This document shows, in pieces, positions 38,297 through 38,396 of a stretch of DNA of 41,374 nt. Every line of letters begins with the position of its first letter. Position 1 is the first letter of the stretch. The translations under genes and the position numbers were made by a program. This stretch comes from an uncultured Lentisphaerota bacterium (GTDB taxonomy: Bacteria > Verrucomicrobiota > Kiritimatiellia > RFP12 > UBA1067), in assembly GCA_900320855.1 (NCBI GenBank), contig ONTV01000003.1, positions 1-41,374 on the forward strand. The letters run 5' to 3'. Under the pieces are notes generated by a model. The model made no database searches, had not been told where the DNA came from, and worked only from the letters and a program-made list of their open reading frames with translations.

Positions 38297-38396
38297 CCCA
38301 TTGCCACTCGCCCATTCGTCACTTGCCCATTCGATCATTCGACCATTCGATCATTCGATCGATTATTCGATTATTCGGTCATTCGATTATTTCCCT
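38297..38396 (+). repeat. Octamer tandem-repeat array E (solo, plus orientation), ending CATTCGATTATTTCCC 4 nt before the dnaJ ATG
   Basis: CCCATTGCCACTCGCCCATTCGTCACTTGCCCATTCGATCATTCGACCATTCGATCATTCGATCGATTATTCGATTATTCGGTCATTCGATTATTTCCC. Confidence 0.85.

Follow-up and report, generated by a model that had tools for sequence, protein, structure and literature searches.

An octamer repeat array between grpE and dnaJ is a recent, length-variable insertion and probably a tolerated passenger

We find that the octamer array filling the grpE-dnaJ spacer of this genome is present in some strains of its species and absent from others, and that its length varies among the strains that carry it. We propose that the array is a recent single insertion of a dispersed octamer VNTR, which is probably a tolerated passenger at this junction and not a required control element. 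The repeat is best read as a VNTR (a long simple-sequence repeat) whose 3' terminus is fixed. The window analysed here (41,374 nt) is the whole of contig C64 of a metagenome-assembled genome of 2.41 Mb and 66% GC, whose nearest public relatives are gut and rumen Kiritimatiellae.

Layout of the grpE-dnaJ spacer

The gene order in this part of the window is argG (36387-37619), grpE (37630-38277, plus strand; Pfam GrpE, 5.6e-36; stop codon TAA at 38275-38277), a spacer of 123 nt (38278-38400, plus strand), dnaJ (38401-39612, plus strand), a Na+/H+ antiporter-family gene (39620-40948) and a tRNA. Only 10 nt separate argG from grpE (37620-37629), and neither hrcA nor a CIRCE operator was seen in the genome, an unusual context for a chaperone operon. 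The product of dnaJ has the Pfam domains DnaJ, DnaJ_CXXCXGXG and DnaJ_C; its start is the ATG at 38401, as marked by the DnaJ N-terminus, and public gene calls record a product of 403 aa. A sequence-only reading of this DNA had pointed out that a naive ORF runs through the array into dnaJ, and an open frame from a TTG at 38323 does exist. However, no gene call on record has the extended product of 429 aa, versus the recorded 403 aa. For annotation, this means that the array should not be described as a conserved dnaJ leader and that dnaJ should not be extended through it.

The spacer has four parts, all on the plus strand. A head of 50 nt (38278..38327) consists of degenerate, GC-richer units (CCGCGCATTCCGGCTTCGGCCCATTGCCACTCGCCCATTCGTCACTTGCC) and contains a GGC-UUCG-GCC mini-hairpin. 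It is followed by a variable core (38328..38387) of seven octamers (CATTCGAY / TATTCGRT) with an extra CGAT at 38360-38363, in the order CATTCGAT, CATTCGAC, CATTCGAT, CATTCGAT, CGAT, TATTCGAT, TATTCGGT, CATTCGAT. The family terminus TATTTCCC (38388..38395) is the closing part of a conserved ATTCGATTATTTC motif, and a tail, TAGTG (38396..38400), joins the terminus to the start codon; this tail belongs to the derived allele described below and is the same in all filled alleles. Tandem Repeats Finder reports a period of 8 and 8.5 copies at 38328-38391. The description of the array (38297-38395) as a sense-strand dnaJ leader, with (CATTCGAY)n ending in TATTTCCC and filling the spacer, thus stands, with the correction that the gap to the ATG is 5 nt, as the string given in that reading already shows, and not 4. 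The array is also a solo copy, as had been noted: an inverted TCGAATG arm is absent from the spacer.

The array is a derived allele within the species

Conspecific contigs were recovered by exact-protein look-up; a metagenome protein scan gave a best identity of 75% and no conspecifics. Two of the contigs (L167 and L168) carry an empty site, ...CCGGACGCCTAA-CAAACC-ATG. Both match the window at 99.3-99.4% nucleotide identity over 2712 nt, and their DnaJ protein is identical. The outgroup species L161 has the same 6-nt spacer, CAAACC. Because this spacer is common to L167, L168 and the outgroup, the empty site is the ancestral state, with the array derived within the species. Relative to these three sequences, a derived segment of 134 nt (38267..38400, plus strand) replaces 11 ancestral nucleotides, CCTAACAAACC. 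The last three codons of grpE (GAK) and its stop come from the inserted segment, such that GrpE ends in SSGQPDGAK* in the window versus ...PDA* when the end of the empty allele is translated. No target-site duplication is seen at the inserted segment when it is compared with the empty alleles or with the outgroup.

Twelve other conspecific contigs are filled, 11 of which resolve the array. Their spacers, as given by short-read assemblies with one scaffold gapped inside the array, are 95, 119 (two sequence variants), 135 and 159 nt long, next to the 123 nt of the window. The filled alleles hold 4, 7, 9 or 12 units and are set apart by whole octamers in the core. All resolved filled alleles share one 50-nt head, with a single base changed in L171, and have an invariant tail. 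The remaining contig, L166, has a run of N inside its grpE-dnaJ array (L166:1331-1430); copy numbers of such repeats in metagenome-assembled genomes may be underestimated where short-read assemblies break or gap.

The flanking sequence fits a common origin of the filled alleles. Over the last 150 nt of grpE, the window and three filled contigs (L165, L169 and L171) are identical, while the empty L167 differs at five sites; by eye, two of these five differences are derived states in the filled alleles. As far as these alleles show, the insertion sits on a single haplotype. A search for a donor locus of the 50-nt head gave only partial matches, to the heads of the family copies C106 and C80 with which it has partial homology, and one chance coding match; no enzyme associated with array dispersal was identified. 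Among the filled and empty alleles, dnaJ differs at 2-11 nucleotides. Every one of these differences is synonymous, so dnaJ is under purifying selection with the array in place. The filled type is the commoner one among the contigs retrieved, and the filled-type GrpE is listed in 40 blocks of the collection. Drift or hitch-hiking could account for this excess, but so could a benefit.

We next consider the same junction in other species. In three sister species that carry the octamer family elsewhere, DnaJ is 96-97% identical, nucleotide identity is 92-94% and the grpE-dnaJ spacers are 6, 3 and 3 nt. In relatives whose DnaJ is 58-75% identical, the junction ranges from an overlap to about 40 nt and is free of repeats. 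The function for dnaJ that the sequence-only reading had suggested is not supported by these data: conspecifics with an identical DnaJ have a 6-nt spacer in place of the array, and these three sister species have spacers of 3-6 nt. Absence from close relatives is the outcome that the reading itself had named as refuting. In a fourth sister species, a Hadza gut Kiritimatiellaeota MAG (L001), the spacer is 139 nt long and contains an unrelated heptamer inverted pair (L001:2855-2993), with (GAAGKAA)n directly 3' of the grpE stop and (CTTCATC)n-TTTTTCCC before dnaJ. This pair is an independent colonisation of the junction. Its T-rich-CCC end resembles the octamer terminus.

A dispersed family of polar octamer arrays

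The earlier reading had called for a genome-wide search for the array consensus. Scanning for clusters of at least three ATTCGA units, we found 72 clusters, all of them polar and with a common terminus: irregular units lead into perfect CATTCGAY units, which lead into a fixed end, ATTCGATTATTTC(C/T). The 21-mer ATTCGAYYATTCGATTATTTC has 41 copies in the 2.41-Mb genome, versus none for the reversed control, and a single copy in 1 of 30 genomes of relatives. Within the genus, 5 of 60 other genomes contain a three-unit pattern. By these counts, the octamer family (about 70 copies) is almost confined to one species.

To place the clusters relative to genes, we used a home-made codon-usage gene caller. 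Thirty clusters are antisense between co-directional genes, 16 are sense, 19 are inside gene calls and 3 are at convergent or divergent junctions; sense copies are thus fewer than antisense ones (p = 0.054). In 28 of the 30 antisense copies the terminus is 0-22 nt from the upstream stop codon. Two apparent preferences were rejected as signals. Co-directional junctions hold 46 of 49 copies, which is not an enrichment over a background of 91% co-directional neighbours (p = 0.34), and the anchoring of the terminus to gene ends is accounted for by very short native spacers (median 34 nt; 6 nt here). The terminus is as conserved in the 30 antisense and 19 intragenic copies as in the 16 sense copies. 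Its conservation is therefore a property of the element and does not mark a start-codon signal, and this finding contradicts the suggestion that ATTATTTCC serves dnaJ as a translation-initiation or RNA-protein site.

The sense strand of the array has no stop codon in any frame. As a consequence, copies can sit in frame in the leaders of two pseudopilin genes, and naive ORF finders run through them. In these two ORFs, the N_methyl motif is found only at residues 49-70 and 42-62, downstream of array-encoded extensions, and by inspection there is no ATG, GTG or TTG between the array and the motif in the first ORF. The corresponding arrays in the window are at 1126..1269 (minus strand, in frame in the first leader peptide) and 8549..8630 (minus strand, in frame in the second, with GGAGG and an ATG upstream of the array). 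Each has an inverted partner on the plus strand, at 1674..1800 (antisense to its flanking genes) and at 8690..8820, whose terminus lies directly against the stop codon of the minus-strand gene upstream. The proposal that the element can be tolerated in two roles, as coding sequence and as a 5' leader, is borne out by the dnaJ spacer and by these two extensions. With the dnaJ copy, the window holds five arrays of the octamer family and a sixth of a different unit, (CTCCCACY)n ending in TTTTCCC (24408..24461, plus strand), in agreement with the earlier count of six.

A number of other sites show how repeats are used in this genome, which is rich in long-unit repeats overall. For instance, at C83:17396-17425 an octamer array encodes, in frame, the n-region of what looks like a lipoprotein signal peptide (MRHSTIRAFDYSIISLALLLGVTGC...), a further coding use. 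Other array families with 6-9-nt units (GTTTGGRG/CCAAAC, GGACAGAG, GATTTCA and CGAGAGA) often adjoin or grade into octamer arrays, for example at C104:8540-8628, C120:10640-10687, C81, C113:23980-24020 and C66:6700-6930. Octamer copies also precede genes that we read from their N-terminal sequences as upp, carB and rho. In the last case, a CCAAAC-type array passes gradually into octamers in the sense orientation (C113:32862-32907), which end 18 nt before the ATG of an ORF of about 597 aa, in which we find the Rho RNA-binding domain. A long, C-rich and G-poor repeat leader of rho is suggestive of Rho autoregulation. In the window, the 100 nt just 3' of the (CTCCCACY)n-TTTTCCC array (24461-24560) are AT-rich and contain several TTATCAACA / TGTTGATAA-like motifs that resemble DnaA boxes; this region may be oriC.

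The start region of dnaJ

As had been claimed, dnaJ is without a Shine-Dalgarno motif: GGAG, GAGG and AGGA are all absent from the 20 nt upstream of its ATG. Shine-Dalgarno 4-mers precede about 39% of confident genes in this genome, versus a background of 12%. Given that only this fraction of genes has one, the missing motif at dnaJ is not special. The array is 68% pyrimidine and 13% G over its 99 nt (T35 C32 A19 G13), and the fold of the leader is no more stable than that of shuffled sequences (z = -0.41). From -30 to +30 the minimum free energy at the dnaJ start is -7.3 kcal/mol, weaker than for 81% of genes, versus -15.7 in the empty allele. In E. coli, single-stranded repeat tails can serve as ribosome standby sites (PMC5934652), and the array agrees in composition and fold with a standby or S1-type leader, that is, single-stranded and G-poor just upstream of the start. 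On composition only, it also agrees with a Rho utilisation site (at least about 80 nt untranslated, C>G, unstructured).

A number of other signals were sought in this region. No promoter or terminator was found in the spacer, and no sigma-70-like hexamers flank it. Coupling through a uORF ending at the TAG-TGA beside the ATG finds no start codon in that frame. The only known RNA family in the whole window is a tRNA, and the Rfam search that the sequence-only reading had called for returned no match for 38150-38500 even at E <= 1. A stable RNA structure or thermometer in the dnaJ leader was rejected on the fold, the Rfam result and the absence of the array in relatives. A phase-variable contingency locus was rejected as well, given that the array is outside the ORF, is without sigma-70-like hexamers and has no uORF in the stop-containing frame.

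Explanations for the array at the grpE-dnaJ junction

Based on these data, we propose the following history. The array would have entered the grpE-dnaJ junction once, recently and within the species; whole 8-nt units have since been added to its core and lost from it, which fits replication slippage or unequal exchange. The ancestral dnaJ start, 3-6 nt past the grpE stop, is an arrangement that by its spacing suggests translational coupling. The insertion would abolish this coupling and leave dnaJ to be initiated de novo without a Shine-Dalgarno motif. Three properties may explain why this was tolerated: the sense strand is G-poor and stop-free; the lack of stable structure would keep the start region open, with the leader acting as a passive ribosome standby platform; and most genes of the genome are without a Shine-Dalgarno motif anyway. 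Passive tolerance of the array by dnaJ initiation, or even mild help to it, is therefore plausible by analogy. The array would be needless for dnaJ expression and for heat-shock control, and any effect on dnaJ dosage would be a by-product. A Rho-dependent polar effect is possible, since the array is C>G, untranslated and about 100 nt long, and the genome has a Rho gene.

This last point leads to the alternative that survives best, in which unit number acts on operon polarity as a heritable rheostat. By loading Rho or altering standby capacity, the spacer would set the DnaJ:GrpE ratio and the expression of the downstream antiporter, and selection would maintain the length polymorphism. The C:G ratio of 32:13 over 99 nt without stable structure, the loss of coupling relative to the 6-nt ancestral spacer, the Rho encoded in the genome and the coexistence of lengths of 4-12 units with an empty allele are all consistent with it, and the relative rarity of sense copies (16 vs 30) would be expected if a rut-like orientation were costly. 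However, this orientation bias is marginal, a neutral tandem repeat would vary in length in the same way, sister species have no equivalent and the case for the rheostat is inferential throughout. We consider it unlikely. A broader version, to which we give a slim chance, treats the octamer family as a non-autonomous element in active spread that would insert at cistron boundaries, where its slippage-prone core would be a heritable and reversible dial (0-12+ units) for coupling and Rho polarity, with alleles that tune chaperone stoichiometry.

It is improbable that the array, and chiefly its terminus ATTATTTCC, is a dedicated initiation or RNA-binding-protein site that replaces the Shine-Dalgarno motif of dnaJ. 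The position of the terminus, 5 nt from an ATG that lacks this motif, and the open start region first suggest such a role, as do several sense copies whose ends lie 2-25 nt upstream of starts that have no Shine-Dalgarno motif (a pilM-like gene at C113:25082, the rho leader and C75:13903). Yet other sense copies, such as those before groES and the gene at C58:5888, retain AGGA or AAGGAG after the terminus; antisense and intragenic copies conserve the terminus just as well; the array is missing from conspecific strains and from three sister species; and no Rfam family matches it.

The common form of the family is an inverted pair (stop-GGAAATAA(TCGAATGR)n-loop-(CATTCGAY)nTTATTTCC-start), and one could imagine that this pair forms a long mRNA stem for RNase III-type processing, of which the dnaJ copy has lost the left arm or to which it contributes by pairing in trans with antisense-type arrays. 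Inverted pairs are indeed found at 1126-1800 and 8549-8820, at dnaK-groES (C88) and at about ten other loci, and the same junction in L001 has an inverted heptamer pair. However, no remnant of a left arm is visible in any of the 12 filled alleles, the invariant head does not complement the core, the fold is no stabler than shuffles and pairing in trans is speculation, all of which makes this explanation highly improbable.

A final question is whether the array has to do with the chaperone function of its neighbours. At the dnaK-groES junction (C88:10460-10650, locus L179; 190 nt) there is an inverted octamer pair, which on its outer sides reaches the dnaK stop and comes to 45 nt from groES; groES retains its own AAGGAG. 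Arrays at two chaperone junctions could hint at more than chance. Sister species have repeat-free spacers of 58-61 nt, or a different repeat, at dnaK-groES, and the one CIRCE match found genome-wide, with 4 mismatches, is on contig C65, away from grpE-dnaJ and dnaK-groES. Given that the dnaK-groES array is missing in the sisters, and that neither CIRCE nor an Rfam match was found, the association with chaperone genes looks incidental. That the array is a heat-shock element (RNA thermometer or operator) of the chaperone operon is scarcely credible in spite of the arrays before both dnaJ and groES, since the start is occluded no more than in shuffles, no Rfam thermometer matches, both arrays are missing in sister species and that of dnaJ in some conspecific strains, and octamer copies also precede the unrelated genes read as upp, carB and rho.

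We thus return to the tolerated passenger as our preferred explanation. The presence/absence evidence across the population at the grpE-dnaJ junction is a new result. It amounts to an unusually clean natural experiment: within one species, an ancestral coupled junction and derived repeat spacers of 95-159 nt stand before an identical DnaJ. Such an allelic series could be used to measure the effects of repeats on coupling, on polarity and on SD-independent initiation, as well as their mutation rate and spread.

Comparison with known repeat systems

The array shares individual features with a number of well-described systems. Like the contingency SSRs of Haemophilus and Neisseria, it has a unit number that is hypervariable among strains and lies beside a gene start. 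Unlike them, it is outside the dnaJ ORF, where a change in unit number cannot shift the frame, and is without promoter-like hexamers; moreover, dnaJ has a housekeeping role, unlike a surface or restriction gene. In a second example, the array is similar to the standby tails of CA or AU repeats (Sterk, Romilly and Wagner 2018, PMC5934652) in being a repetitive, unstructured sequence upstream of a start that, by analogy, could raise initiation without pairing to 16S rRNA. However, those tails were engineered beside a structured ribosome-binding site in E. coli, and a standby role for the array is putative. In a third example, octamer copies are small, non-coding, dispersed and intergenic like MITEs and REP/BIME elements, and in the paired form their outward-facing identical ends are like terminal inverted repeats. 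The dnaJ copy differs in that it has no inverted partner and no target-site duplication, replaced 11 nt and has a tandem array as its body. A MITE/REP-type mobile element was rejected for this copy, which is a solo arm with 11 nt exchanged for 134 nt and no duplication.

The closest described systems appear to be the intergenic heptamer repeats of Xanthomonas (GGGAATC) and Nostoc/Anabaena (GGGGAYT), for which Rehm et al. 2015 report no demonstrated function (PMC4692102). About 90% of these heptamer arrays are intergenic. They lie mostly between ORFs of the same orientation, may be on either strand and frequently form inverted pairs; the arrays vary in length between relatives, include groES among their neighbours and are restricted to certain lineages (PMC4692102). 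The octamer arrays are likewise head-to-tail, at many loci of a GC-rich genome, on either strand and with nearby inverted pairs, and they too are nearer to one flanking ORF than to the other and mostly between co-oriented ORFs. They differ in having an octamer unit that is not based on a G-tract, and hence no G-quadruplex potential, and in being polar with a fixed terminus of 13-21 nt. In Xanthomonas, 83% of the sites are common to two species (PMC4692102), whereas the octamer site at grpE-dnaJ is polymorphic within a species and absent in its sisters.

More generally, the octamer family can be compared with long simple sequence repeats, the wider class that takes in the Xanthomonas and Nostoc heptamers. 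Repeats of this kind with 5-11-nt units were reportedly described in prokaryotes by Mrazek, Guo and Shah in 2007 (cited in PMC4692102), and PMC4692102 also cites tandem heptanucleotide repeats of the cyanobacterium Calothrix. The Calothrix repeats are named STRR. The array has at least three head-to-tail units of 5-11 nt (period 8, 8.5 copies by Tandem Repeats Finder), the same unit is found at many, mostly intergenic loci on either strand (72 clusters), the copy number varies among close relatives (4, 7, 9 and 12 units as well as the empty allele), and the family is restricted to a lineage (41 copies versus 1 copy in 1 of 30 relatives; 5 of 60 genus members). As in that class, the family is over-represented, dispersed, mainly non-coding and variable in copy number, and is not made up of classical contingency loci. 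Long simple sequence repeats are a general statistical class, whose description does not include a fixed terminus, a graded head or use in frame as a leader. Judged by sequence features, the octamer family shows every defining feature of the heptamer/long-SSR class that we tested, and it adds to this class an octamer unit, a fixed terminus and a presence/absence polymorphism within a species.
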